Positions 11,741-41,153 of a stretch of DNA of 47,546 bases are shown one piece after another (position 1 is the first letter of the stretch; each line of letters opens with the position of its first letter). The position numbers and the translations under genes are program-made. A model generated the notes under the pieces. The model did no database searches. It had not been told where the DNA came from and was given only the letters and a program-made list of their open reading frames with translations. The stretch lies in contig JAZSAX010000008.1 in NCBI GenBank assembly GCA_045602065.1, forward strand, positions 1-47,546, written 5' to 3'. Source of the DNA: Clostridia bacterium (GTDB lineage Bacteria > Bacillota > Clostridia > TANB77 > CAG-508).

Positions 11741-11890
11741 ATGTTAAATGAAGAAATTTGTAAATTAAGAAATAAACTTAATGAAAGTATTGTTACAGGT
11801 AAAGACTATAGCATAATTTATCAATTGAGTATTGAACTTGATGAATTAATTGCAGAATATTATAGAAGAAATAAAAAGGCAGTTAGTTAA
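11741..11890 (+). CDS. Spo0E-family aspartyl-phosphate phosphatase-like small protein (49 aa, not in the ORF track)
   Basis: Own translation: MLNEEICKLRNKLNESIVTGKDYSIIYQLSIELDELIAEYYRRNKKAVS. Size and helix-hairpin pattern resemble Spo0E-like proteins. GGAGAG RBS upstream. Confidence 0.5.
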   Translation: MLNEEICKLRNKLNESIVTGKDYSIIYQLSIELDELIAEYYRRNKKAVS

Positions 11891-11903
11891 TAACTGCCTT
11901 TTT
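11873..11903. terminator. Bidirectional terminator shared by the convergent spo0E-like and ygjV-like genes
   Basis: AAAAA-GGCAGTTA-gttaa-TAACTGCC-TTTTT. Both stop codons lie inside the hairpin. Confidence 0.7.
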
Positions 11904-12344
11904 AGAACAATGCAACTTATATATGGCAATAGTATTTGTTACAATAGTCATAAAGTCAAATATCGCAGATGTATATGATTGGATATATATGTCATAAATA
12001 AACCATAAAATTACAGTTGTAATAACTAAGATTTTGAATTTTACAACATCTTTTAAATCTATTAGTAAAGTATATACAACTGTACTTATTAAAGGAAGTA
12101 GTCCCCAAAGTCCTAGATTGTTGAAAAATAGTGAAAATACTGAGGTAATAATCACTAATAATATTTTTTCTTTATTTCCCAATTTGTTTTTATAAAATAA
12201 TATATTTCTAATACAGGCAAATGCATTTGTTATAGCACCTGTAATTCCGCCTAATACAAGATTGCTTATTACAAATAGCAAGATTTGTATTGTTTGAATA
12301 TATATAATTTTTTCTTTTTTTCTTATTAAGCCTGAATATACCAT
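11883..12344 (-). CDS. YgjV-like inner membrane protein. The N-terminus is probably interrupted by an in-frame TAA (see findings).
   Basis: 153-aa multi-TM ORF. The frame continues upstream to ATG 12395 (AGAGAG RBS; promoter TTGAAA 12458-12453 / TATAGT 12435-12430) through a single TAA at 12362-12360. Confidence 0.5.
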   Translation of the reverse strand: MVYSGLIRKKEKIIYIQTIQILLFVISNLVLGGITGAITNAFACIRNILFYKNKLGNKEKILLVIITSVFSLFFNNLGLWGLLPLISTVVYTLLIDLKDVVKFKILVITTVILWFIYDIYIQSYTSAIFDFMTIVTNTIAIYKLHCSKKAVIN

Positions 12345-12525
12345 TAATAGTGATGCAATTTATGCAATTATATTTCCTATTATTATAAAAATCATTTTAT
12401 CTCTCTTTTCATTTATATTTTATGATATTACTATATAATATTTTTTTGAAGATTTCAAGTTTTGTTTTATACAAAGAAGAACAACTTATTATTGGATTTG
12501 TTTAGCAAAAATTATGTATTATCAA

Positions 12526-12554
12526 TTGAATTTCTAAGGAAAATGCTGTATAAT
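12526..12554 (+). promoter_or_regulatory. Near-consensus sigma-A promoter driving the small hydrophobic peptide
   Basis: TTGAAT (12526-12531), 17-nt spacer ending in TG, TATAAT (12549-12554). Confidence 0.65.
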
Positions 12555-12602
12555 AATTAAGCCTTTCGGCAAATAAGTCAGGAAGGAGGTGTTTTTTTAC
12601 AA

Positions 12603-12671
12603 ATGAAAAAATACATAAAATTTTTAACTTTAATCATTGTTCTTTTGATATTAAAAGAATTAAATGATTGA
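12603..12671 (+). CDS. 22-aa hydrophobic peptide, candidate type I toxin (not in the ORF track)
   Basis: Strong SD GGAAGGAGG (12581-12589). ATG 12603 to TGA 12671 encodes MKKYIKFLTLIIVLLILKELND. Has its own promoter and terminator. Confidence 0.45.
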   Translation: MKKYIKFLTLIIVLLILKELND

Positions 12672-12675
12672 AATG

Positions 12676-12710
12676 AAAAGACTAGGAATGGCAGTTCCTA
12701 GTCTCTTTTT
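12676..12710. terminator. Bidirectional intrinsic terminator
   Basis: AAAA-GACTAGGAA-tggcag-TTCCTAGTC-TCTTTTT (9-bp stem, A-run on the 5' side, T-run on the 3' side). Confidence 0.75.
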
Positions 12711-12752
12711 GTGTTTTTCACAAATAAAAAATACATAAAATTAATTTTTTGT
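12676..12752 (-). ncRNA. Predicted ~75-nt antisense RNA (candidate type I antitoxin)
   Basis: Leftward promoter TTGACA (12788-12783), 17 nt, TGT-TAATAT (12765-12760). The transcript would contain the complement of repeat 12711-12742, which matches the peptide's translation-initiation region (12589-12622), and end at the shared terminator. Confidence 0.35.
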
Positions 12753-12796
12753 TAAATATATATTAACATATTATTATTTATATGTCAATAATATTT

Positions 12797-12871
12797 TGGA
12801 GGCGCCTATCGGAATCGAACCGATGAATCAGAGTTTTGCAGACTCGTGCCTTACCGCTTGGCTAAGGCGCC
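12797..12871 (-). tRNA. tRNA-Cys (GCA), CCA encoded
   Basis: Reverse complement GGCGCCTTAGCCAAGCGGTAAGGCACGAGTCTGCAAAACTCTGATTCATCGGTTCGATTCCGATAGGCGCCTCCA folds as a cloverleaf. Anticodon loop CTGCAAA, canonical TTCGATT T-loop. Confidence 0.9.
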
Positions 12872-12892
12872 GTTTTATAATAAAAAAATGTC

Positions 12893-12966
12893 TGGAGCAG
12901 GTAACGGGAATCGGACCCGTAACTAATCCTTGGCAAGGATTTATTTTACCACTAAACTATACCTGC
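12893..12966 (-). tRNA. tRNA-Gly (GCC), CCA encoded, with an atypical T-loop
   Basis: Reverse complement GCAGGTATAGTTTAGTGGTAAAATAAATCCTTGCCAAGGATTAGTTACGGGTCCGATTCCCGTTACCTGCTCCA. Anticodon loop TTGCCAA. The T-loop reads TCCGATT, with C at the position normally U55. Confidence 0.8.
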
Positions 12967-12981
12967 ATCAGTGACTTAATA

Positions 12982-13010
12982 ATAATAACAAAATATTTAA
13001 GATTTGTCAA
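12982..13010 (-). promoter_or_regulatory. Promoter of the tRNA-Gly/tRNA-Cys operon
   Basis: Minus strand: TTGACA (13010-13005), 17-nt spacer ending in TGT, TATTAT (12987-12982), about 15 nt before the tRNA-Gly 5' end. Confidence 0.65.
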
Positions 13011-13017
13011 TACCGTA

Positions 13018-14268
13018 TCAGATTTTTTTGTATAACAAAGTTTCTAAATAATATATATAATTTTTAATCATTTCTTTCAAAAAATCATCATAATCTTTTT
13101 TCGGTATGAAATTAGAATTATAGATATTTAAAGTAATTACAGTTTTTTCATTTATACCAACAGTAAGATAACCAATAGAAGAATTTGCAGGCAAAGGAGC
13201 TTCAAAAGAGGTATTACAATATATGTATATGCTAATGTCACTTGTTTGATTACAATTTACTGGAAAATAATTAAATGGTAAATCTTCAAGAAAAATATCC
13301 AGATTATTAGACAATCCTTTTTTTACAACAATACTTGAAGAATTGCATAATTCCCAATTTTCAAATTCTGTTAAAATCTTTTCTTTAATATTAATCATTT
13401 CAAAATTTTGGTAAGCATATTCAATTAATTTAATACTATCTCTTGTTCTATCTTTTTTGGTATCAGCTCCAAGAACGATACAAATCAAATCCATGTTATC
13501 ACGTTTAATAGATGTTACAAGGCAACGATTAGCTCCATTTGTAAATCCTGTTTTTACACCATAAACACCATTTAAATTTCCAAGAAGTTCATTTGTATTT
13601 GTTAAATTTTTAGGTTTGCCATTAATGGAAACAGTATAATTTTTTGTCCCTACATAATTACAAAAAGTTTCGTTTTGTAGAGCATAATGAGTTATAGTAG
13701 CAAGTTCATAAGCAGTTGTAAAATGTTCATCATTATCAAGGCCATGAGGTGTAACAAAATGTGTTGAAGTTAGCTTCAAAAAATCACATTTTGCATTCAT
13801 CAAAGAAGCAAAACCAGAAACGTCACCACCAACATATTCAGCAAGTGCAACAGCAGCATCATTTCCTGAGCATAGCATTAAACCATAAAGCAAATCACGA
13901 ATAGAAATCTTGTCATTTGTATGAAGCCCAAGACGTGAACCTCCAGTACCTGCCGCTTTGGATGAAACTGTAACAATATCGTCAAGATTAGCATTTTCAA
14001 TAACAATTATTGCTGTCATAATTTTTGTAGTTGAAGCCATTTTTCTTTGTTCATTTTCATTTTTGCCAAAAAGAATAGAACCTGAAGTTCTGTCATAAAT
14101 AATTGCAGCTCTAGAATTGATTGTTGGTTCATCTACGATACTAGAAGAAACTTCAATTAATGCTGAAAGATTATTAGATATTTCTTCATTTTCATCATCA
14201 GCAAAAACTATATAATTAAAAGATAAAATGAAAACTGTAAAAGCAAGAAAAATCTTATAAAATTTCAC
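13018..14268 (-). CDS. D-alanyl-D-alanine carboxypeptidase (S11, PBP5/DacB/DacF type)
   Basis: 416 aa with a signal/TM N-terminus. Motifs SxxK (ASTTK), SxN (CSGND) and KTG (VKTGFT). Confidence 0.85.
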   Translation of the reverse strand: MKFYKIFLAFTVFILSFNYIVFADDENEEISNNLSALIEVSSSIVDEPTINSRAAIIYDRTSGSILFGKNENEQRKMASTTKIMTAIIVIENANLDDIVTVSSKAAGTGGSRLGLHTNDKISIRDLLYGLMLCSGNDAAVALAEYVGGDVSGFASLMNAKCDFLKLTSTHFVTPHGLDNDEHFTTAYELATITHYALQNETFCNYVGTKNYTVSINGKPKNLTNTNELLGNLNGVYGVKTGFTNGANRCLVTSIKRDNMDLICIVLGADTKKDRTRDSIKLIEYAYQNFEMINIKEKILTEFENWELCNSSSIVVKKGLSNNLDIFLEDLPFNYFPVNCNQTSDISIYIYCNTSFEAPLPANSSIGYLTVGINEKTVITLNIYNSNFIPKKDYDDFLKEMIKNYIYYLETLLYKKI

Positions 14269-14397: not shown

Positions 14398-17300
14398 ATG
14401 AAAAAGAAAATAATAAGCGTATTAATTATAATATCAATAATTGTAACTATCTTATTAGGAAGCATGATAAGTTATGCAAAATATGCTTCAGATAAACCAT
14501 TAACTGTAAAATTAACAAAAGCAGATTCAAATGGAGTAGGATATGCAGTTAATAATCCTAATAGCGGTGGAAAATATATATGGAATATACTATCATATGA
14601 CAGTACTGGTGCAGAAGAACAAAGAAACCTATATTGTGTGAAAGCAGAATATGGAGCTACATGGAAAACCACACCAGAAAAAGAAGTAGTATATAATTTA
14701 CAATATGATTTGCACTCAGATAGAGATATGTTAGGACAAAACTTAGGAACCGATTCTGATTCTGAAGTTGTAGCATCTTTGATAAAAGTGAATGGTGGTC
14801 AATATGAACAATTACTATGGCTATTTGACAATATGTATATGCCAGAAGACACAGACAAAGATGAATTTTTAGAAAAAATTGGTGTATTAAAAGATGAACT
14901 AGGATATTACAAACAAGTTGGAGAAAATAAAGTTCCTTATAATTCTGTTTTGACAGAAGAAGATATAATAGCAATTCAAAAAGTGGCTATTTGGAAATTT
15001 ACTAATGGAGGAACATATAGTTTAACACCAGAACAAACACTATGGTTTAATATTATAACAGGTCAAGACAATGAAGGAAATTATACTTATGATACATTAA
15101 AGACTGATTATCCAGATAGAAATGAGCAAGCGATGCTTTTATATAATTATCTAATAACGGAGGCAGATAAGAATGAGAATAAAGCATTATATGAAGACTA
15201 TGCTAATCAAGCAAATAATGTAACAATAGATACAACCAATTTGACTCAAGATGAAAATAACAATTATATATTACAAACAAGAATTGTTAATGGTAAATAT
15301 GTAACAGGACCAATAAAAATAACAGCAGAAAACAATAATCCTTATTACATTGATTTATCAGTTACAAATAATTCTGTAGATGTAGCATTTGATTTCGTAA
15401 ATGCAGATGGCTCAGCAATAGAAAATGCAACTATCGAATCTTTAGTTGGAACAGAGTTTTATATAAGTACAGATATAAGTACAATAGATGAACTAAATAT
15501 ATCAATATCTGTAAAACAAGAAAGAAGAAATAAAACATTATGGCTATCTGGTGGGGAAATGAAAGACGAAGAGACAGGTAAAACATTAATTATATTACCT
15601 GGTGAACAACCAATAGTAGAAATTAAGGAAACAGATCCAGTAATTACAAGCTTTATAGTAAAACCATTTGACCTAGCATTAAGAAAATATATAACAGCAG
15701 TAAAAAGTGGAGAAACAACTACAGCTATAAATACAAGAATACCAAATTATGGAGATTTATCAGCATTAGAAGCAGGAACAACAGCTGAATACAAACATAG
15801 AAAAGATCCAGTAGAAGTAAAAGATGGAGATGTTGTTACATACACAATTGCAATTTATAATGAAGGTAGTAAAGCAGGCTATGCAAGTAAAATAATAGAT
15901 CAGTTACCAGCAGGATTATTCATGAGTAATATACATACTAATGAAACTAATGGTGGTATAGTAACATCAAAAGATAGTCAAGGAAATCCAGTAAATACTT
16001 ATAAAATAGAATGGGATTATATAAAAAATCCTATGAACTATTTAAATCAAATAACATTGACAATTGCAGATGAAGAAAATGCAGTAAGTTTAAATCCGTA
16101 TACAACAGAAAATGGATTAGATTATGAAACAATAGAAATACAATGTAGAGTTGAACAAGAACCACATACAAAAAATGATATAATATTGACAAATGTGGCT
16201 TGGATAGAAGAAGCTTATGATTCAGAAGCAGAAAAAGAAATATCATCAGAAGGAACATTAGATAGAGATTCACAACCACAATTATCACCAGATGTAGATA
16301 AAGACAACATGGAAAATTATAAAGGTAATAATGAAAATAAAAATGCTTTAGAAGATAGTTCTTATCATTATAAAGGTGAACAAGATGATGATGATTTCGA
16401 GAAATTAGTAATAAAAGCAGTACCTAAAAACTTTGATTTAGCATTATTTAAACATATAGCAGCAATAAGCAAAGATCAAACAATAGAGGATGGAGAATAT
16501 GTAACAGATACAGGAAGCATAGATGGAACATATTTAAGAGCACCGGTTGTAACAGCAATAGATCCACAAACAGGCAAAATAACTTATGAACAAGATGATA
16601 AAGTAGCATTAATTGTAGAACCAGGTGATTATGTATTATATACAATAAGAGTGTATAATGAGGGAGAAATCAGTGGTTATGCAAGTAAAATTAAAGACAC
16701 ATTACCAGTAGGATTAGATTTTGTAGAAGACAATGTTGAATATAATGGTATATGGAAATTAGAAGGTTTAGATTCTGATGGAAGACAAGTACTAACAACA
16801 ACATGGTACGCACAAGGAAATGGCGCTGAAACAGATGCTGAAGAAGGAGATGCAAATTATCAAGCAAATTTATTAAAAGCATTAAACAAAGAAAGTGTAG
16901 TAAGTAATGAGAATCCAGATTACATAGATGCTCAAGTTTTATGCCAAGTAGTAGAAAATGCTACATCAGATAGAGTGTTAGTAAATTATGCACAAATATC
17001 AGATGATACAGATGAAAATGGTAAAACAATAGACGATATAGATTCTACAACAGACGAATGGATTGATAATGAAGATGATCAAGATATTGAAAGAATAAAA
17101 GTACAATGTTTTGACTTAAGCTTAAGAAAATTCATAACAGCAGTAGAGGGAAAAGAATTAAAGGATAGCAATGGAAAATATACAAGAGAACCTGTTGTAG
17201 ATGTATCAAATCTAATTAACGGATTAAGCTCAACTGCAACATATACACATCCAAAACAACCAGTAGCAGTACAAGTTGGAAATAAAGTAGTATACACAAT

Positions 17301-18960
17301 AAGGGTATATAATGAAGGCGATATAGATGGATTTGCAAGTGAAGTAAAAGATTATTTACCACCATATTTAAAATATGTGCAAAATAGTGAAATAAACCAA
17401 CAATACGGATGGCAAATTTCAGAAAATGGAAGAATTGCAGCAACAAGACATCTAGCAAATTCAAAACTAGAAGCTTTTAATGGAACAAGATTAGATTATG
17501 CAGACTTGAAAATAGAATGTGTGGTTTCAGATGATGTACCATTACAACAAAATCAAACTAATATAGCAGAAATATCAGAATATACATATAATGGTGGAAC
17601 AGTAGATAAAGATGCTGATTCAACATCAAATAATATAGTAAGTAAAAATTACTTGCCAAGTGATGAAAACTTGCCATCTTATAAAGATAATGAGATAGAT
17701 AAACCTTATGTGCCAGGAAACGAAGATGATGATGACTTTGAAAAAATATATGTAAAAGAATTTGACTTAGCATTAAGAAAATTCATAACAAAAGTACAAG
17801 AAACTGATGTAACAACAAGAGTACCACAAGTAAAAATTGAAAATGGAGAAATATCTTATGAGCATACAAAAGACCCATTAATAGTACATATGGGAGACGT
17901 TGTAATTTATACATTAAGAATATTCAATGAAGGTGAAATCTCTGGATATGCAAGTGAAATCACAGATGACATTCCAGAATACTTAGAATTTTTACCACAA
18001 GATTCAACAAATGTAGAATATATGTGGAAAATGTATGATGAAAATGGAAATGAAACTGAAAATGTTGCAGATGCAGTAAAAGTAAAAACAACATATTTAT
18101 CAAAAGAAAATGGTGAAAACAATTTAATAAATGCATTTGATGGAACAACATTAGATTATAAAGACATAAAAATAGCATTTAAAGTAAAAGATCCAAATTC
18201 AAATCAATACATTATAACAAATTATGCACAAATTTCAGAAGATACAGATGAAAATGGAAATGCAGTAAATGATAATGACTCAGATACAGAAGCATGGAAT
18301 GAAGGTGAAGATGATCAAGATATAGAAAATATAAAAGTACAATATTTTGATTTGTCATTACTAAAATTTGTATCAAAAGTAATTATGATAGAAGATGGAA
18401 AACAAACAATAACAGAAACTGGATATAATGGACATGAAGATCCAGAACCAGTTGTAAAAGTGGAATTACACAAAAAGAAACTTAATAATGTTGTTGTAAA
18501 ATTCGGATATGGAATTACTATTACAAATGAAGGAGATATTGCAGGATATGCAACAGAAATTACAGACTATGTACCACAAGGATTAAAATTTGATCCAACA
18601 GATAATCCAGAATGGGAAGATGAAGGAAATAATGTAATATCTACACGACAACTAGAAGGAAAATTATTACAACCAGGAGAAAGTGCGACAGTAGAAGTAA
18701 TATTTACATGGGTAAACAGTAGCGATAATTTAGCTTTAAAAACCAATATAGCTGAAATTTCTGAAGATAAGAATGAATATAATGTACCAGATAGAGATTC
18801 AACGCCAGATAATAAAAAAGATGGTGAAGATGATATTGATATAGCAAAAGTGATATTAGCTATTTCAACAGGTGCAATAAAAACATATTTCATGTTAACA
18901 CTAGGATTATTAACAGTTATTTTAGTTGGAGTTGTACTAATTAAGAAATTTGTATTATAA
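14398..18960 (+). CDS. 1520-aa cell-surface adhesin-like protein. Layout: signal/TM, N-terminal ~420-aa domain (possible thioester domain), five DUF11-like repeat modules, C-terminal hydrophobic anchor.
   Basis: N-terminal hydrophobic helix. YCVK (C80) and IQKVAIWKFTNG (Q194) motifs. Five modules each starting FDL(A/S)L(R/F/L)K and containing GD.V.YTI.VYNEG...GYAS.I.D.LP.GL. C-terminus is LAISTG + 23 hydrophobic residues + KKFVL. Confidence 0.7.
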   Translation: MKKKIISVLIIISIIVTILLGSMISYAKYASDKPLTVKLTKADSNGVGYAVNNPNSGGKYIWNILSYDSTGAEEQRNLYCVKAEYGATWKTTPEKEVVYNLQYDLHSDRDMLGQNLGTDSDSEVVASLIKVNGGQYEQLLWLFDNMYMPEDTDKDEFLEKIGVLKDELGYYKQVGENKVPYNSVLTEEDIIAIQKVAIWKFTNGGTYSLTPEQTLWFNIITGQDNEGNYTYDTLKTDYPDRNEQAMLLYNYLITEADKNENKALYEDYANQANNVTIDTTNLTQDENNNYILQTRIVNGKYVTGPIKITAENNNPYYIDLSVTNNSVDVAFDFVNADGSAIENATIESLVGTEFYISTDISTIDELNISISVKQERRNKTLWLSGGEMKDEETGKTLIILPGEQPIVEIKETDPVITSFIVKPFDLALRKYITAVKSGETTTAINTRIPNYGDLSALEAGTTAEYKHRKDPVEVKDGDVVTYTIAIYNEGSKAGYASKIIDQLPAGLFMSNIHTNETNGGIVTSKDSQGNPVNTYKIEWDYIKNPMNYLNQITLTIADEENAVSLNPYTTENGLDYETIEIQCRVEQEPHTKNDIILTNVAWIEEAYDSEAEKEISSEGTLDRDSQPQLSPDVDKDNMENYKGNNENKNALEDSSYHYKGEQDDDDFEKLVIKAVPKNFDLALFKHIAAISKDQTIEDGEYVTDTGSIDGTYLRAPVVTAIDPQTGKITYEQDDKVALIVEPGDYVLYTIRVYNEGEISGYASKIKDTLPVGLDFVEDNVEYNGIWKLEGLDSDGRQVLTTTWYAQGNGAETDAEEGDANYQANLLKALNKESVVSNENPDYIDAQVLCQVVENATSDRVLVNYAQISDDTDENGKTIDDIDSTTDEWIDNEDDQDIERIKVQCFDLSLRKFITAVEGKELKDSNGKYTREPVVDVSNLINGLSSTATYTHPKQPVAVQVGNKVVYTIRVYNEGDIDGFASEVKDYLPPYLKYVQNSEINQQYGWQISENGRIAATRHLANSKLEAFNGTRLDYADLKIECVVSDDVPLQQNQTNIAEISEYTYNGGTVDKDADSTSNNIVSKNYLPSDENLPSYKDNEIDKPYVPGNEDDDDFEKIYVKEFDLALRKFITKVQETDVTTRVPQVKIENGEISYEHTKDPLIVHMGDVVIYTLRIFNEGEISGYASEITDDIPEYLEFLPQDSTNVEYMWKMYDENGNETENVADAVKVKTTYLSKENGENNLINAFDGTTLDYKDIKIAFKVKDPNSNQYIITNYAQISEDTDENGNAVNDNDSDTEAWNEGEDDQDIENIKVQYFDLSLLKFVSKVIMIEDGKQTITETGYNGHEDPEPVVKVELHKKKLNNVVVKFGYGITITNEGDIAGYATEITDYVPQGLKFDPTDNPEWEDEGNNVISTRQLEGKLLQPGESATVEVIFTWVNSSDNLALKTNIAEISEDKNEYNVPDRDSTPDNKKDGEDDIDIAKVILAISTGAIKTYFMLTLGLLTVILVGVVLIKKFVL
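15667..18849 (+). repeat. Five tandem diverged protein-level repeat modules (about 170-255 aa each) inside the adhesin gene
   Basis: Module starts at nt 15667, 16432, 17110, 17761 and 18346 (F424, F679, F905, F1122, F1317). Acidic linkers (DDDDFEK / EDDQDIE.IKVQ) separate them. Confidence 0.8.
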
Positions 18961-36392: not shown

Positions 36393-39300
36393 GTGAGCAA
36401 GACGAAAAAAGTAAGCGAAGTCTTTAGTGACTATAAAACAAATAGCAATATTGCAGATGCTGAAATAACAAAAATGAATTTAATAAAAAAGATAAATACA
36501 CTTGAAATAGGAATTACTTCAAAAGAATATATAGAAATAAAAGAAATATGGTATTTGGAAAAATTCTTAAGAGAAAGATTTCAATTTGGACAAGTTCATA
36601 TGATGATTCAATATGAAGAAGGTGTGCGTAAGAAATCAATAGAAACAGAGTGGGAAAATTTGATATGTTATATGGCACACAAATATCCATTAATGAGGCC
36701 ATTACTATTATTGAAAAGTAAAGTAGAAGTTCAAGATAATAAAATTAATATATTCATGAAAATAAAAGGTGCAGATTTCTTAAAAGCAAGAAAGCTAGAT
36801 AAAGAGTTAGAAACTGTAATAGTCAATTTATTTGGGAAAAAATATACAGTTAATATTGAAGAAAGAATAACTGAACAAGAAGTAGAAGCATTTAAAGAAA
36901 GAACAAAACAGATGGAACATGAGGCTGTTGAAGAAGCAATGAAAGCAAATCAACAATCACATCAAGATGAAGAGATACCACCAATTCCACAAGGACCATA
37001 CAATGATGCAGACTATGAAATGCCACCAGAAGAAGGCCTTGGATATATGCCAGAAATGGAAGAACTTCCTCAAGCAGAAAACCTTATATTTGGGAAACCT
37101 TCAAGAGCAAAAGAAAATAAAATAAAGATAAAAGATATAACTTCAAATGATGCAAGAGTGACATTAGAAGGAAGAATAGTAAACACAGAATGTAAAGAAA
37201 CTAAAACAGGAAAAGGAATGCTTATATTTGAGTTATATGATGGAACTGGAATAATTACTTGTAAATCATTTGCAAAAGATGCTGCAGAAGGTAATGAAGT
37301 ACTAGAAAAAATAAAATCTGCAAAAGCAATAAAAACAACAGGAAAAGCAGGATTAGATGCTTATGCAGGAGATATAACTGTTATGGCAAACATTATAGCA
37401 GAAATATCAGATGAAGGAATGCCACCATTACCAGAAGAAGATGATAGTACACCATTAATTTTAGGTTCATCAATGAATATAAATGACCCATTAACAAAAA
37501 TTGCAGACCTAAATGCGGAATCGGGAAATGTATGCATAGATGGTGAAATTCAATTCATGGAAGACAAAGAAACAAAATCAGGGAAAGTAATTTTAAGTAT
37601 AGATATTTATGATGGTACAAGTACAATGACTTGTAAAGCATTTTTGCCAGCAAACAATGCAAAGAGGATAATAAAAAGACTTAAAAGTACGAAAGCAATA
37701 AAGTTGGCTGGAAAAGCTCAAATGGATGCATTTTCAAATGAGCTAACAATAATGGCAAATACAATAGTAGAATCAACACCATTACCAAAAACAACAAGAG
37801 AAGATAAATCAGAAGTGAAAAGAGTAGAGCTTCATATGCATACCAAGATGAGTCAAATGGATGCAATGACTTCAGCTGAAGATTTAATAAAAAGAGCAAT
37901 GAAATGGGGAATGAAATCAATAGCAATAACAGACCATGGAGTAGTGCAATCATTCCCAGAAGCACACCATTTACTTGGAAGAGACAATCCAGATATGAAA
38001 GTAATTTATGGTGTTGAAGCATATCTTGCACCAGACAAAGAAAAATCAGTAATAAATGAACAAGGTCAAAGTATTGATACAACATATTGTGTACTTGACT
38101 TAGAAACAACAGGATTTTCACCTGTTACAGATAAAATAACTGAAATTGGAATAATGAAAGTTCAAAATGGAGAAGTAGTTGATAAATTTAGTTGTTTTGT
38201 AAATCCTGGAAGAGCAATACCACCAAGAGTTGTAGAAGTTACCAATATAACTGATGACATGGTTAAAGATGCTGAAACTATAGATAAAGTATTTCCGAAA
38301 CTAATGGAATTTTTAGGTGATTCAGTAATTGTAGCACATAATGCTGGATTTGATGTGGGCTATTTAAAACATAACGCAAAAGTACTTGGATACAATTTTG
38401 ATTATACATATATAGATACTTTATCACTTGCAAAAGATTTATTTCCAAATTTCAAAAAGTATAAATTAGGAAAAATTGCTGAAGAATTAGGAATAAAAGT
38501 AGAAGTCGCACATAGAGCTTTAGATGATGTTGATACAACAGTAAAAGTATTTAATGTAATGATAAAAATGTTAAAAGATAAAGGTGTACAAACACTTAAA
38601 GAAATAGATGAAGTTGGAAAAGATGATGAATCAGCAAAAGAAGAATACAAAAAATTAAATACATATCATGCTATAATTTTAGCTAAAAATTATGTAGGTC
38701 TAAAAAATCTTTATAAACTAGTATCTTTATCACATTTACATTATTTTTATAAAAAACCTAGAATATTAAAAAGCTTATATAAAAAATATTCAGAAGGGCT
38801 AATATTAGGAAGTGCCTGTGAAGCAGGAGAATTGTATCAAGCAATATTACTTGGAAAATCTGATGAGGAAATAGAAAAAATAGCAGAAGATTATGATTAT
38901 TTAGAAATACAACCATTGGTAAATAACGAATTCTTAGTAAGAGAAGGAAGAGTGCCTGATAGAGAATATTTAAAAGATTTAAATAGAAAAATTGTACAAC
39001 TTGGAGAAAAACTAAATAAGCCGGTTGTTGCAACTTGTGATGTTCACTTTATGGATCCACAAGATGAAATATATAGACGTATATTAGAAGCGGGTCAAGG
39101 GTATAAAGATGCAGATAATCAAGCACCATTATATCTAAGAACAACAGAGGAAATGTTACAAGAATTCAGCTATTTAGGTGAAGAAAAAGCATATGAAGTA
39201 GTAGTAGAAAATACAAATAAAATCGCAGATATGTGTGATAGAATTTGCCCAATATCACCAGAAAAATGTCCACCACATATTCCGGGATGTGAAGATGACT

Positions 39301-41153
39301 TAAGAAGAATAACTTATGAAAAAGCACATGAATTATATGGTGACCTATTACCAGAAATTATAGAAACTAGATTAGAAAAAGAATTAAATTCTATTATAAA
39401 TAACGGATATTCTGTAATGTATATTATTGCACAAAAGTTAGTATGGAAATCAAATGAAGATGGATATATAGTAGGTTCAAGAGGCTCTGTAGGTTCATCA
39501 CTTGTAGCATTTATGACAGGTATAACAGAAGTAAACTCATTACAACCACATTATAGATGCCCAAATTGTAAATATTCTGATTTCACAGATTATGGAATAG
39601 GAAATGGATATGATTTACCAGATAAAGATTGCCCAAATTGTGGACATAAGCTTGCAAAAGATGGGATGGATATACCATTTGAAACATTCTTAGGATTTAA
39701 TGGAGATAAAGAGCCAGATATAGACCTAAACTTCTCAGGAGAATATCAAGCAAAAGCGCATAAATATACAGAAGTAATATTTGGAAAAGGAACAACATTT
39801 AAAGCTGGAACAGTAGGTACAGTTGCTGATAAAACAGCGTTTGGGTATGTAAAAAAATATTATGAAGAAAGAAATATACCTGTAAATAAAGCAGAAATAA
39901 CAAGGATATCTGCAGGATGTACAGGAATAAAGAGAACAACAGGACAACATCCTGGAGGAATTATAGTAGTTCCAAAAGGAAGAGAAATATATGAATTTAC
40001 ACCAGTACAACATCCAGCTGATGACCCAACATCAGATATTATAACAACACATTTTGATTATCACTCAATAGATGCGAACCTTTTAAAACTAGATATACTA
40101 GGACACGACGATCCAACTGTAATTCGTATGTTACAAGATTTAACAGGTGTTGCACCAACAGATATACCATTAGATGATAAACAAACAATGTCAATATTTA
40201 ATTCGACAGATGCATTAGGAGTAACACCAGAGCAAATTAATTCAAAAGTAGGAACTTATGGAATACCTGAATATGGTACTAAATTTGCTAGAGGCATGCT
40301 TTTAGACACCTTACCAACAACATTTGATGAGTTAATACGTATATCAGGTTTATCACATGGTACAGATGTATGGCTAGGAAATGCTCAATCATTAATAGAA
40401 CAAGGAACAGTAACACTTAAAGAAGCAATATGTTGTAGAGATGACATTATGGTATATTTGATGAAAAAAGGATTACCTCCAGACAAAGCATTTAAAATAA
40501 TGGAGACAGTTCGTAAAGGAAAAGCGCTTAAAGATCCAGAAAAATGGAATGGATTTAAAGAATTAATGAAACAATATGATATTCCAGATTGGTATGTAAA
40601 ATCATGTGAAAAAATTAAATACATGTTCCCTAAAGCACATGCTGCAGCATATGTAACAAATGCATTTAGAATAGCGTGGTTTAAAGTTCATATTCCACTT
40701 GCATATTATGCTGCATACTATTCAATTAGAGCAAAAGCATTTGACGCAGAATTTATGATAAATGGAAAAGAAAAAGTAAAAAACAAAATGAAAGAAATAG
40801 AAATGATGGGGAATAATGCAACACCAAAAGACAAGGAAATGTATGATGACTTAGAACTGGTACTTGAAATGTATGAAAGAGGAATCAAATTCTTGCCAAT
40901 AGATTTATATAAATCTCATGCTACTAAATTCCTAATAGAAGGTGAATATTTAAGACCACCTCTAAATAGCATAGCAGGTCTTGGAAATGTTGCTGCAGAA
41001 GGTATAATGAAAGCACGTGATGAAGAAAAATTCATGTCAATTGATGATATGAAAATTCGTGCAAAAGTCGGTGATTCTGTTACAGAATTATTACGCCAAT
41101 TCGGATGTTTAGAAGGAATGAGCCAAAGTAACCAGTTAAGTTTATTTGGGTAA
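36393..41153 (+). CDS. polC: DNA polymerase III PolC-type (1586 aa) with two tandem OB-fold modules
   Basis: GTG start. PHP (VELHMHTKMSQMD), DEDDh exonuclease (VLDLETTG...HNAGFD...HRALDD), zinc-finger (CPNC...CPNC) and polymerase core motifs. Duplicated segment at aa ~245-338 and ~368-460. Confidence 0.97.
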   Translation: MSKTKKVSEVFSDYKTNSNIADAEITKMNLIKKINTLEIGITSKEYIEIKEIWYLEKFLRERFQFGQVHMMIQYEEGVRKKSIETEWENLICYMAHKYPLMRPLLLLKSKVEVQDNKINIFMKIKGADFLKARKLDKELETVIVNLFGKKYTVNIEERITEQEVEAFKERTKQMEHEAVEEAMKANQQSHQDEEIPPIPQGPYNDADYEMPPEEGLGYMPEMEELPQAENLIFGKPSRAKENKIKIKDITSNDARVTLEGRIVNTECKETKTGKGMLIFELYDGTGIITCKSFAKDAAEGNEVLEKIKSAKAIKTTGKAGLDAYAGDITVMANIIAEISDEGMPPLPEEDDSTPLILGSSMNINDPLTKIADLNAESGNVCIDGEIQFMEDKETKSGKVILSIDIYDGTSTMTCKAFLPANNAKRIIKRLKSTKAIKLAGKAQMDAFSNELTIMANTIVESTPLPKTTREDKSEVKRVELHMHTKMSQMDAMTSAEDLIKRAMKWGMKSIAITDHGVVQSFPEAHHLLGRDNPDMKVIYGVEAYLAPDKEKSVINEQGQSIDTTYCVLDLETTGFSPVTDKITEIGIMKVQNGEVVDKFSCFVNPGRAIPPRVVEVTNITDDMVKDAETIDKVFPKLMEFLGDSVIVAHNAGFDVGYLKHNAKVLGYNFDYTYIDTLSLAKDLFPNFKKYKLGKIAEELGIKVEVAHRALDDVDTTVKVFNVMIKMLKDKGVQTLKEIDEVGKDDESAKEEYKKLNTYHAIILAKNYVGLKNLYKLVSLSHLHYFYKKPRILKSLYKKYSEGLILGSACEAGELYQAILLGKSDEEIEKIAEDYDYLEIQPLVNNEFLVREGRVPDREYLKDLNRKIVQLGEKLNKPVVATCDVHFMDPQDEIYRRILEAGQGYKDADNQAPLYLRTTEEMLQEFSYLGEEKAYEVVVENTNKIADMCDRICPISPEKCPPHIPGCEDDLRRITYEKAHELYGDLLPEIIETRLEKELNSIINNGYSVMYIIAQKLVWKSNEDGYIVGSRGSVGSSLVAFMTGITEVNSLQPHYRCPNCKYSDFTDYGIGNGYDLPDKDCPNCGHKLAKDGMDIPFETFLGFNGDKEPDIDLNFSGEYQAKAHKYTEVIFGKGTTFKAGTVGTVADKTAFGYVKKYYEERNIPVNKAEITRISAGCTGIKRTTGQHPGGIIVVPKGREIYEFTPVQHPADDPTSDIITTHFDYHSIDANLLKLDILGHDDPTVIRMLQDLTGVAPTDIPLDDKQTMSIFNSTDALGVTPEQINSKVGTYGIPEYGTKFARGMLLDTLPTTFDELIRISGLSHGTDVWLGNAQSLIEQGTVTLKEAICCRDDIMVYLMKKGLPPDKAFKIMETVRKGKALKDPEKWNGFKELMKQYDIPDWYVKSCEKIKYMFPKAHAAAYVTNAFRIAWFKVHIPLAYYAAYYSIRAKAFDAEFMINGKEKVKNKMKEIEMMGNNATPKDKEMYDDLELVLEMYERGIKFLPIDLYKSHATKFLIEGEYLRPPLNSIAGLGNVAAEGIMKARDEEKFMSIDDMKIRAKVGDSVTELLRQFGCLEGMSQSNQLSLFG

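Follow-up and report, generated by a model that had tools for sequence, protein, structure and literature searches.

The locus considered here raises the question of whether an interval that contains no annotated gene, positions 12526-12796 of contig JAZSAX010000008.1 from an uncultured Clostridia bacterium, encodes a small toxin–antitoxin module next to a tRNA-Cys gene. The whole stretch of DNA that was analyzed, positions 1 to 47,546 of this contig, is called the window in the following. Type I modules are missed by gene callers and have been little explored in uncultured gut Clostridia. A first-pass annotation of the window had proposed that the interval follows the type I logic of the par/Fst systems, with convergent promoters, a shared terminator and a duplicated translation-initiation region, but with a peptide that is not Fst. 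Comparison with homologous loci supported this proposal through a conserved open reading frame (ORF), conserved promoters and terminator, and a repeat whose two copies co-vary from locus to locus. From these comparisons we consider it quite probable that the interval is a par-like type I toxin–antitoxin candidate whose peptide would belong to a new toxin family.

The candidate module and its homologs

The comparison set consisted of five loci: the window and L001, L015 and L016, in which the module is intact, and L002, in which it is degenerate; the four homologs come from other uncultured gut Clostridia. All the elements of the module were found in the window where the first-pass annotation had placed them, including the peptide ORF from the ATG at 12603 to the TGA at 12671. 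The encoded peptide is 22 amino acids (aa) long in 4/4 intact loci (MKKYIKFLTLIIVLLILKELND in the window and MKKYIKLLTLIVILLIVKEFDD, MKKFIKLIALIVILLILKEFDN and MKKFLKLLALIIILFVLKEFND in the homologs). In the window peptide a hydrophobic core separates a basic N-terminus from an acidic C-terminus; Pro, Gly and Trp are absent from all four peptides, whose C-termini follow the pattern K-E-x-(N/D)-(D/N). Across the four intact loci the variable columns are distributed as 10/1/12 over codon positions 1/2/3, pairwise dN/dS values range from 0.10 to 0.41, and the other two frames contain stops. Judged by these substitution patterns, the ORF is a coding gene under purifying selection.

A generic filter for ORFs resembling type I toxins, requiring a short ORF with a Shine-Dalgarno (SD) sequence, a basic N-terminus, at least 10 hydrophobic residues and a charged C-terminus, selected only the window ORF and its three intact homologs on both strands of 185 kb. 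Type I toxin peptides in T1TAdb measure 20-60 aa (PMC8594479), and a 22-aa ORF on a predicted mRNA of ~150 nt fits the short hydrophobic-peptide ORF criterion of type I systems (PMC8594479). Other roles for the coding sequence were tried and rejected. A mini-ORF conserved in the SD-to-AUG spacer and translationally coupled to the peptide ORF is plausible only in L001, where it has 3 codons (ATG TAC AAA TGA, MYK*) and a stop that overlaps the main ATG, and a role as leader peptide or attenuator was discarded because no co-directional gene follows before the terminator.

With the neighboring D-Ala-D-Ala carboxypeptidase, a penicillin-binding protein (PBP), as a query, a scan of a genome collection returned ten loci, 8 of which keep the order PBP, tRNA-Gly, tRNA-Cys. 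Among these carboxypeptidase-anchored loci the cassette is present only in L001, a metagenome-assembled genome of goat-colon Clostridia whose PBP is 88% identical; nucleotide identity between L001 and the window is 74% in the module and 89% in the right flank, and the left flank is unrelated. On metagenome contigs, a degenerate pattern of the peptide architecture (GGAG, a gap of 7-16 nt, M-K/R-K/R, T at the second position of eight core codons, K/R-D/E and a stop at codon 23) picked out exactly two loci, L015 and L016, both true homologs. The fifth copy, L002, was recovered with an nhmmer profile of the four mRNAs (E = 5e-25) and lies ~3 kb from the tRNA-Cys of its genome; the same profile matches the window at 12559-12711, the one copy in its 47.5 kb. 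Viral contigs scanned with a peptide alignment and with two looser or related DNA patterns gave chance matches only. Searches of phage and plasmid collections by blastn and tblastn with the module and the peptide returned nothing relevant, the low-complexity filter being one that may hide the peptide.

The module neighbors the PBP gene and tRNAs in the window and L001, topA and tRNAs in L015, a hydrogenase gene and an acyl-CoA ligase gene with no tRNA nearby in L016, and a methyltransferase gene and a DUF1294 gene in L002. Homology between the loci spans from the -35 box of one promoter to the -35 box of the other, a unit of ~265 bp, and none of 11 loci with a topA 91-99% identical to that of L015 carries it. 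Given these unrelated contexts and the absence from close relatives, the module therefore behaves as an autonomous and sporadic cassette.

Within this unit the ORF, both promoters, the terminator and the repeat are kept in L001, L016 and L015, save for the antisense promoter in L015. Conservation of the repeat and the promoters at orthologous loci had been set as a test beforehand, and it held, L015 alone among the intact homologs being devoid of an antisense promoter and L002 retaining remnants. In L002 a TAA at codon 4 interrupts the ORF (MKK*IKLIALIIILLILKELDD); the terminator of the upstream gene has taken the place of the toxin promoter and of the 5' half of the stem-loop, and a 36-nt insertion lies at the module terminator. 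The antisense promoter of L002 is intact and most of the second repeat copy is kept. Such decay, of the putative toxin side before the antitoxin, is as expected if the peptide were harmful, L002 being a single case.

Predicted folding of the mRNA and pairing with the antisense RNA

The rightward promoter that had been claimed, TTGAAT and TATAAT separated by 17 nt, is present; its TG was not scored as an extended -10 element because it touches the -10 box directly instead of standing as TGn. In the four intact loci the -10 box (TATAAT, TACACT, TATACT, TATAAT) ends 4 nt before a conserved AAGCC that opens the 5' stem of the peptide mRNA, and the sequence farther upstream of the -10 box is unrelated between loci. 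The AAGGAGG of the SD is invariant in all loci, and 13-15 nt separate the GGAGG from the ATG in 5/5 loci (the window spacer being 12590-12602).

Folding of the four mRNAs together (RNAalifold) predicts that CCUUUC and the first SD half (GGAAGG, AAAGG or GAAAGG) form the stem of a 5' stem-loop. In this stem positions 4-12 pair with 19-28; pairs 10/21 (GC, GU, AU) and 11/20 (GC, GU, CG) vary and stay paired, and the inner stem varies from G-C/G-U/C-G to A-U/C-G/C-G. A small hairpin is predicted over the spacer between SD and AUG. In the 17-bp hairpin within the ORF, pairs 78/109 and 81/106 are compensatory, and the replacement N21D is accompanied by a synonymous substitution in codon 12. All intact loci share the terminator stem GACTAGG/CCTAGTC, which is flanked by A and T runs on both sides and encloses a variable loop. 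In this consensus fold 97.7% of cells are paired, and double changes occur at 4 pairs compared to 0-1 in slid controls. The bidirectional terminator proposed for the window was recovered, with a stem (12679-12704) computed as 11 pairs where 9 bp had been claimed; it is followed by CTTTTTGTGT, and the tail on the opposite strand is TTTTCATTTC.

On the other strand, the claimed leftward promoter was found as TTGACA-17-TAATAT with a TGn at 12788-12760. The antisense promoters of the homologs read TTGACA-17-TATACT in L001, TTGACA-17-TATATT in L016 and TTGGCA-17-TATACT in L002, and in L015 no antisense promoter lies between the tRNA and the terminator. Beyond the terminator hairpin, the predicted fold of the antisense RNA consists mostly of weak AU pairing. 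A duplication relating the antisense promoter to the tRNA promoter (12760-12790 and 12982-13012, 74% over 31 nt, both with TTGACA and an extended -10) was also considered, and the likeness was judged to be shared consensus.

The 5' part of the antisense RNA would be complementary to the start region of the mRNA because a stretch of 32-34 nt is duplicated directly across the terminator. In the window this repeat of the initiation region is present as proposed (12590-12622 and 12710-12742, with 82% identity when ungapped and 31/34 matching columns when gapped), and its second copy indeed has no G of the ATG. A repeat of ~34 nt is found in 5/5 loci, interrupted by an indel of 1-5 nt after the ATG; as copy 2 is always without these 1-5 nt, the predicted duplex, which spans from just past the SD through the AUG to about codon 8, has an internal loop at codons 2-3.

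Each intact locus carries its own version of the repeat in both copies (TACATAAAATT in the window, TACATTAAATTACTT in L001, TTTATCAAATTAAT in L015 and TTTCTTAAA(T/C)T in L016), and the identity between copy 1 and copy 2 is 0.74-0.91 within a locus and 0.62-0.74 across loci. Cognate duplexes computed with RNAduplex have energies of -29.0, -35.6, -33.0 and -35.1 kcal/mol, compared to -11.3 to -22.2 for non-cognate ones, and the cognate assignment of partners is the best of 24 permutations. For the window, the duplex of the mRNA with the 5' part of the antisense RNA (-29.0 kcal/mol) lies well beyond the -8.8 +/- 2.4 obtained with shuffled antisense. To score covariation between the molecules, the mRNA segment of each of the five loci was joined to its own antisense segment in one alignment. 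Double changes were present in 10/27 intermolecular pairs compared to 2-5 when the partners were slid, and the covariation score was 0.348 compared to 0.183 +/- 0.037 in shuffles (0/500 reach 0.348) and 0.05-0.17 in slid controls. The terminator hairpins of the two predicted RNAs are also complementary to each other. Combined, the duplex energies and the locus-by-locus covariation bear out the claim that a leftward RNA would be complementary, through the repeat, to the start-codon region of the peptide mRNA and would share its terminator. The features of the window locus are collected in Table 1.

Table 1. Positions of the candidate module and of its neighbors in the window.
Feature	Positions	Strand	Remarks
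Spo0E-like gene	11741-11890	+	
YgjV-like membrane protein gene (PF10688)	11883-12344	-	
Candidate module	12526-12796	both strands	unannotated
Peptide mRNA promoter, -35 TTGAAT, 17-nt spacer, -10 TATAAT	12526..12554	+	10/12 consensus matches
Predicted peptide mRNA, ~150 nt	12559..12712	+	both ends inferred from promoter and terminator
5' stem-loop, CCUUUC pairing with GGAAGG of the SD	12562..12586	+	RNAfold, RNAalifold
Shine-Dalgarno sequence GGAAGGAGG, 13 nt before ATG	12581..12589	+	
22-aa peptide ORF (putative toxin) MKKYIKFLTLIIVLLILKELND	12603..12671	+	
Repeat copy 1, antisense target: SD-to-AUG spacer, AUG, codons 2-7	12589..12622	+	
17-bp hairpin within the 3' half of the ORF, codons 10-13 pairing with codons 20-23	12631..12670	+	
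Bidirectional intrinsic terminator common to both RNAs and the tRNA operon	12676..12710	both strands	
Repeat copy 2, template of the 5' pairing domain of the antisense RNA	12711..12742	-	
Predicted antisense RNA (putative antitoxin), ~80 nt	12672..12753	-	start inferred; from promoter and terminator positions
Antisense promoter, -35 TTGACA, 17-nt spacer, extended -10 TGTTAATAT	12760..12788	-	
tRNA-Gly/tRNA-Cys operon	12797..13010	-	promoter TTGACA-17-TATTAT at 13010-12982
tRNA-Cys	12797-12871	-	
tRNA-Gly	12893-12966	-	
D-Ala-D-Ala carboxypeptidase (PBP) gene	13018-14268	-	

Proposed mechanism and rival explanations

The comparison shows the sequence elements and how they are conserved, the purifying selection on the peptide and the covariation of the pairing segments; the mechanism that we propose is drawn by analogy with par of pAD1 (PMC7472228) and presumes transcription, pairing in vivo, control of translation and toxicity. 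A rightward mRNA of ~150 nt would encode the 22-residue peptide, and a leftward RNA of ~80 nt would end at the same bidirectional terminator. In the free mRNA, the 5' stem-loop (CCUUUC with GGAAGG) would hold part of the SD and keep the nascent mRNA silent. The antisense RNA would then anneal to the start region, perhaps after a first contact between the complementary terminator loops, so that the start is blocked and no peptide is made. If the supply of antisense RNA falls, the peptide would be translated, insert into the membrane and harm or arrest the cell. In the window the antisense RNA could be supplied by its own promoter (12788-12760), by the tRNA-Gly/tRNA-Cys transcript, or by both.

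A number of observations weigh against such a toxin–antitoxin function. Its support is wholly computational and comes from five loci. The interval from K6 to K18 encloses only 11 residues, which is short for a membrane-spanning helix, and the conservation of the peptide may in part be due to constraint on the RNA, codons 1-7 lying in the pairing region and codons 10-22 in the hairpin. A spacing of 13-15 nt between SD and AUG is longer than optimal for Firmicute ribosome-binding sites and inefficient initiation is expected from it; this weakens the case for good translation of the ORF, or could be a deliberate brake. Gene conversion between the two repeat copies, and not selection for pairing, could account for their greater likeness within a locus; gene conversion or not, the covariation indicates that the complementarity of the two pairing segments is being maintained. 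Finally, the terminator loop of the window (UGGCAG) has no YUNR U-turn motif, which by inspection is present in 3/4 homologs (CUUG in L001, UUUG/UUGG in L015 and UUCA in L016); this motif is not universal among Fst homologs (PMC7472228).

The rival explanation that survives best, which we nevertheless hold to be rather unlikely, keeps the same RNA logic and makes the product a non-toxic small membrane peptide, for instance a modulator of a membrane protein, with no addiction or growth arrest. The evidence for an antisense-regulated coding ORF applies to it equally, and the short hydrophobic core and the single copy in the window speak in its favor. However, a sporadic cassette found in unrelated contexts, with no conserved partner gene and absent from the 11 relatives of L015, is better explained as a selfish module; L002 has kept its antisense promoter through the decay of the toxin side; and double repression, by sequestration of the SD and by antisense RNA, is typical of toxic products (PMC7472228).

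The module might also be a true member of the Fst/RNAII (par) family whose toxin has been shortened and has diverged beyond recognition. The regulatory architecture is the same in every respect tested (PMC7472228), and Fst-like loci have been reported in Clostridiales (PMC2887945, PMC7472228). Against this descent, the P/D/S/TxxxG(C) motif of Fst/Ldr toxins (as defined in PMC7472228) is absent from the four peptides, as are the conserved Trp and the charged cluster that follow the transmembrane helix in Fst/Ldr (PMC2887945, PMC7472228), and the peptide has 22 aa compared to 33 aa for Fst of pAD1. The four peptides gave no match at E <= 10 to PF13955 (Fst_toxin), to any other Pfam family or to NCBIfam, while Fst and PepA1, used as a positive control, match PF13955 at 8.7e-5 and 2.8e-5, and PADLOC returned no match for the peptide. 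Nor did any Rfam antitoxin family match the five loci, where only tRNAs and chance matches were obtained (window region at E <= 10; L001, L002, L015 and L016 at E <= 1). That the peptide is not Fst itself, as the first-pass annotation had suspected, is what both the signature and the profile tests show, and descent from Fst appears improbable.

Lastly, the idea that the hairpin is merely the terminator of tRNA-Gly/tRNA-Cys and that chance in AT-rich intergenic DNA produced the ORF, the promoters and the repeat can appeal to the commonness of promoter-like hexamers (11 matches compared to 6.3 +/- 2.5 in shuffles) and to the hairpin being indeed the first terminator downstream of the tRNAs, but is in effect already refuted by the recurrence of the whole cassette in L016 with no tRNA nearby, by the cognate duplexes formed by co-varying repeat copies, by the coding signature of the ORF and by the different terminator that cassette-free relatives have right after the tRNA. 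Lone promoter-like matches carry no significance in DNA of 28% GC; the elements of the module recur in register at four other loci.

If the par-like toxin–antitoxin reading is correct, the module contributes a toxin family that is unrelated, as far as can be detected, to those catalogued and that at 22 aa is among the shortest. The five loci would then be matched mRNA/antisense pairs forming a natural specificity series, and orthogonal pairs of this kind would be useful in the design of RNA devices.

The tRNA operon as a possible antisense source

The first-pass annotation had offered, as an alternative to the module, that the hairpin simply ends the tRNA operon, whose trailer would then carry the antisense segment. 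Its description of the operon stands, as the window has no other terminator between tRNA-Cys and the shared hairpin; as a rival it fails, the two readings being complementary. In 13/16 module-free relatives the operon itself ends in an intrinsic terminator placed at most ~10 nt past the tRNA-Cys CCA end. No such element follows tRNA-Cys in the window, where the CCA end lies at 12797 and the module hairpin (12704-12679), 93 nt farther on, is the first terminator downstream. Lacking a terminator of its own, the window's tRNA operon should yield, from its promoter (13010-12982), a transcript that carries the antisense segment.

In L015 copy 2 directly abuts the CCA end (ATCAAATTAATATGC followed at once by TGGAGGCGCC), and the toxin promoter, the SD, the 5' stem-loop, the ORF and a cognate duplex of -33 kcal/mol are all intact. 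With this layout, no source of antisense RNA other than the tRNA trailer is visible in L015. As the 11 topA relatives provide no second example, the promoter-less arrangement is represented by one 2.9-kb contig. In L001 an insert of 170 nt (L001:5472-5640) lies between tRNA-Cys and the module and brings a tRNA-proximal terminator; it is bounded on the module side by a 21-nt duplicate of the tRNA-Cys 3' end (TGGAGGCGCCTATCGGAATCG) and looks like the scar of an element integrated into the 3' end of tRNA-Cys. From these positions, the antisense promoter that the L001 module uses is predicted to be its own.

In the window and in L015, the putative regulatory segment thus follows the last tRNA and precedes the first operon terminator. 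It is possible, and we put it forward tentatively, that the tRNA-Gly/tRNA-Cys precursor provides the antitoxin as its 3' trailer, all of it in L015 and part of it in the window, with repression of the toxin tied to the transcription of stable RNA. The tRNA-trailer arrangement would suggest that the supply of antitoxin is coupled to growth-rate control. Were this the case, shutdown of the tRNA promoter upon a stringent response, a drop in growth rate or a fall in GTP would lower the antitoxin and the peptide would be made; a type I module would then read the growth state through a tRNA operon, which would give tRNA trailers a new function. Full-text searches of the literature turned up no type I antitoxin described as a tRNA trailer, the nearest concept being regulators derived from tRNA 3' external transcribed spacers (3'ETS), such as 3'ETS-leuZ.

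The 3' flank of tRNA-Cys was compared among relatives (L002-L008, L018-L027) and differs in nearly every one. Downstream of tRNA-Cys are found the end of a tyrosine-recombinase-like gene in L007, an IS200/IS605 Y1 transposase in L026, a tRNA-Met in L008 and a Spo0E-like gene in L006. In L006 this Spo0E-like gene directly adjoins tRNA-Cys, and relative to it the YgjV-like gene and the module look like an insertion of ~0.9 kb in the window (11883-12796). From this comparison the flank is a hypervariable integration hot spot. In L018 an insert of ~550 nt after tRNA-Cys, flanked by the repeat TTATTGGAGGCG, contains a hydrophobic mini-ORF preceded by an SD (L018:5225-5329, + strand; MVDFLLFLIIGFMISVTINVALLTIIFVIWTNKE, 34 aa, with a Trp and a charged tail), whose peptide has no significant match in Pfam or NCBIfam; the mini-ORF may mark another toxin-like cassette, unrelated to the module, at this hot spot.

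The window has a base composition of 28-30% GC and a strong strand bias. An exact look-up of its PBP and YgjV-like proteins matched no record. Elsewhere in the window, an ORF of 1520 aa (14398-18960) with four DUF11 repeats and a C-terminal hydrophobic anchor probably encodes a cell-surface protein, and a very large ORF of 1586 aa lies at 36393-41153.

Comparison with known systems

The RNA 3'ETS-leuZ of Escherichia coli is a tRNA 3' external transcribed spacer RNA that sponges trans-acting small RNAs. As in 3'ETS-leuZ, the pairing segment of the window and of L015 lies between the last tRNA and the operon terminator and would be a by-product of tRNA transcription; unlike 3'ETS-leuZ, the trailer would be the antitoxin of an adjacent and convergent toxin gene. 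The Ibs peptides of E. coli (Ibs/Sib) have 18-19 aa, and ShoB is also very short. Like Ibs and ShoB, the module peptide is about the shortest for type I toxins and almost purely hydrophobic; no sequence similarity to either was detected with Pfam and NCBIfam. These Gram-negative systems are laid out differently, the Sib antisense spanning the whole ibs ORF and OhsC lying 5' of shoB with no overlap (PMC8594479). In the type I modules that lie next to CRISPR arrays and prophages of Clostridioides difficile (PMC5961336), small membrane toxins are likewise paired with antisense RNAs in Clostridia; their toxin family is a different one, the profile libraries giving no match for the module peptide.

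The closest likeness is with par of pAD1, described (PMC7472228) as having promoters that converge on a bidirectional terminator, a 5' stem-loop covering the SD, and direct repeats by which the translation start is sequestered. As in par (Fst/RNAII) and its chromosomal homologs, the module combines convergent promoters with a shared bidirectional terminator and complementary transcripts. Its direct repeats are transcribed in opposite directions, so that the small RNA would pair with the initiation region outside the overlap; an intramolecular 5' stem-loop is predicted over the SD; and the predicted sizes agree (~65-80 nt for the small RNA and ~150-230 nt for the mRNA). The differences from par lie in the peptide, which has 22 aa and no long charged tail compared to the 33 aa of Fst, and in the repeat, a single interrupted one of ~34 nt in place of the DRa/DRb pair. 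Moreover, the start AUG of the module is 13-15 nt from the SD, the terminator loop of the window is without a U-turn, the module is chromosomal in uncultured gut Clostridia, and its antisense RNA may be co-transcribed with tRNAs. In the SprA1/SprA1AS system of Staphylococcus aureus, the toxin PepA1 belongs to the Fst family by its PF13955 match (2.8e-5), unlike the module peptide.

Interaction outside the overlap is described as a specific trait of the Fst/RNAII and SprA1 families (PMC8594479). By its predicted RNAs the module would work like par, and it is not demonstrably a member of the Fst family. As this layout has so far been tied to Fst and SprA1, the par layout would be both older and wider in distribution than the Fst peptide, or would have evolved more than once.

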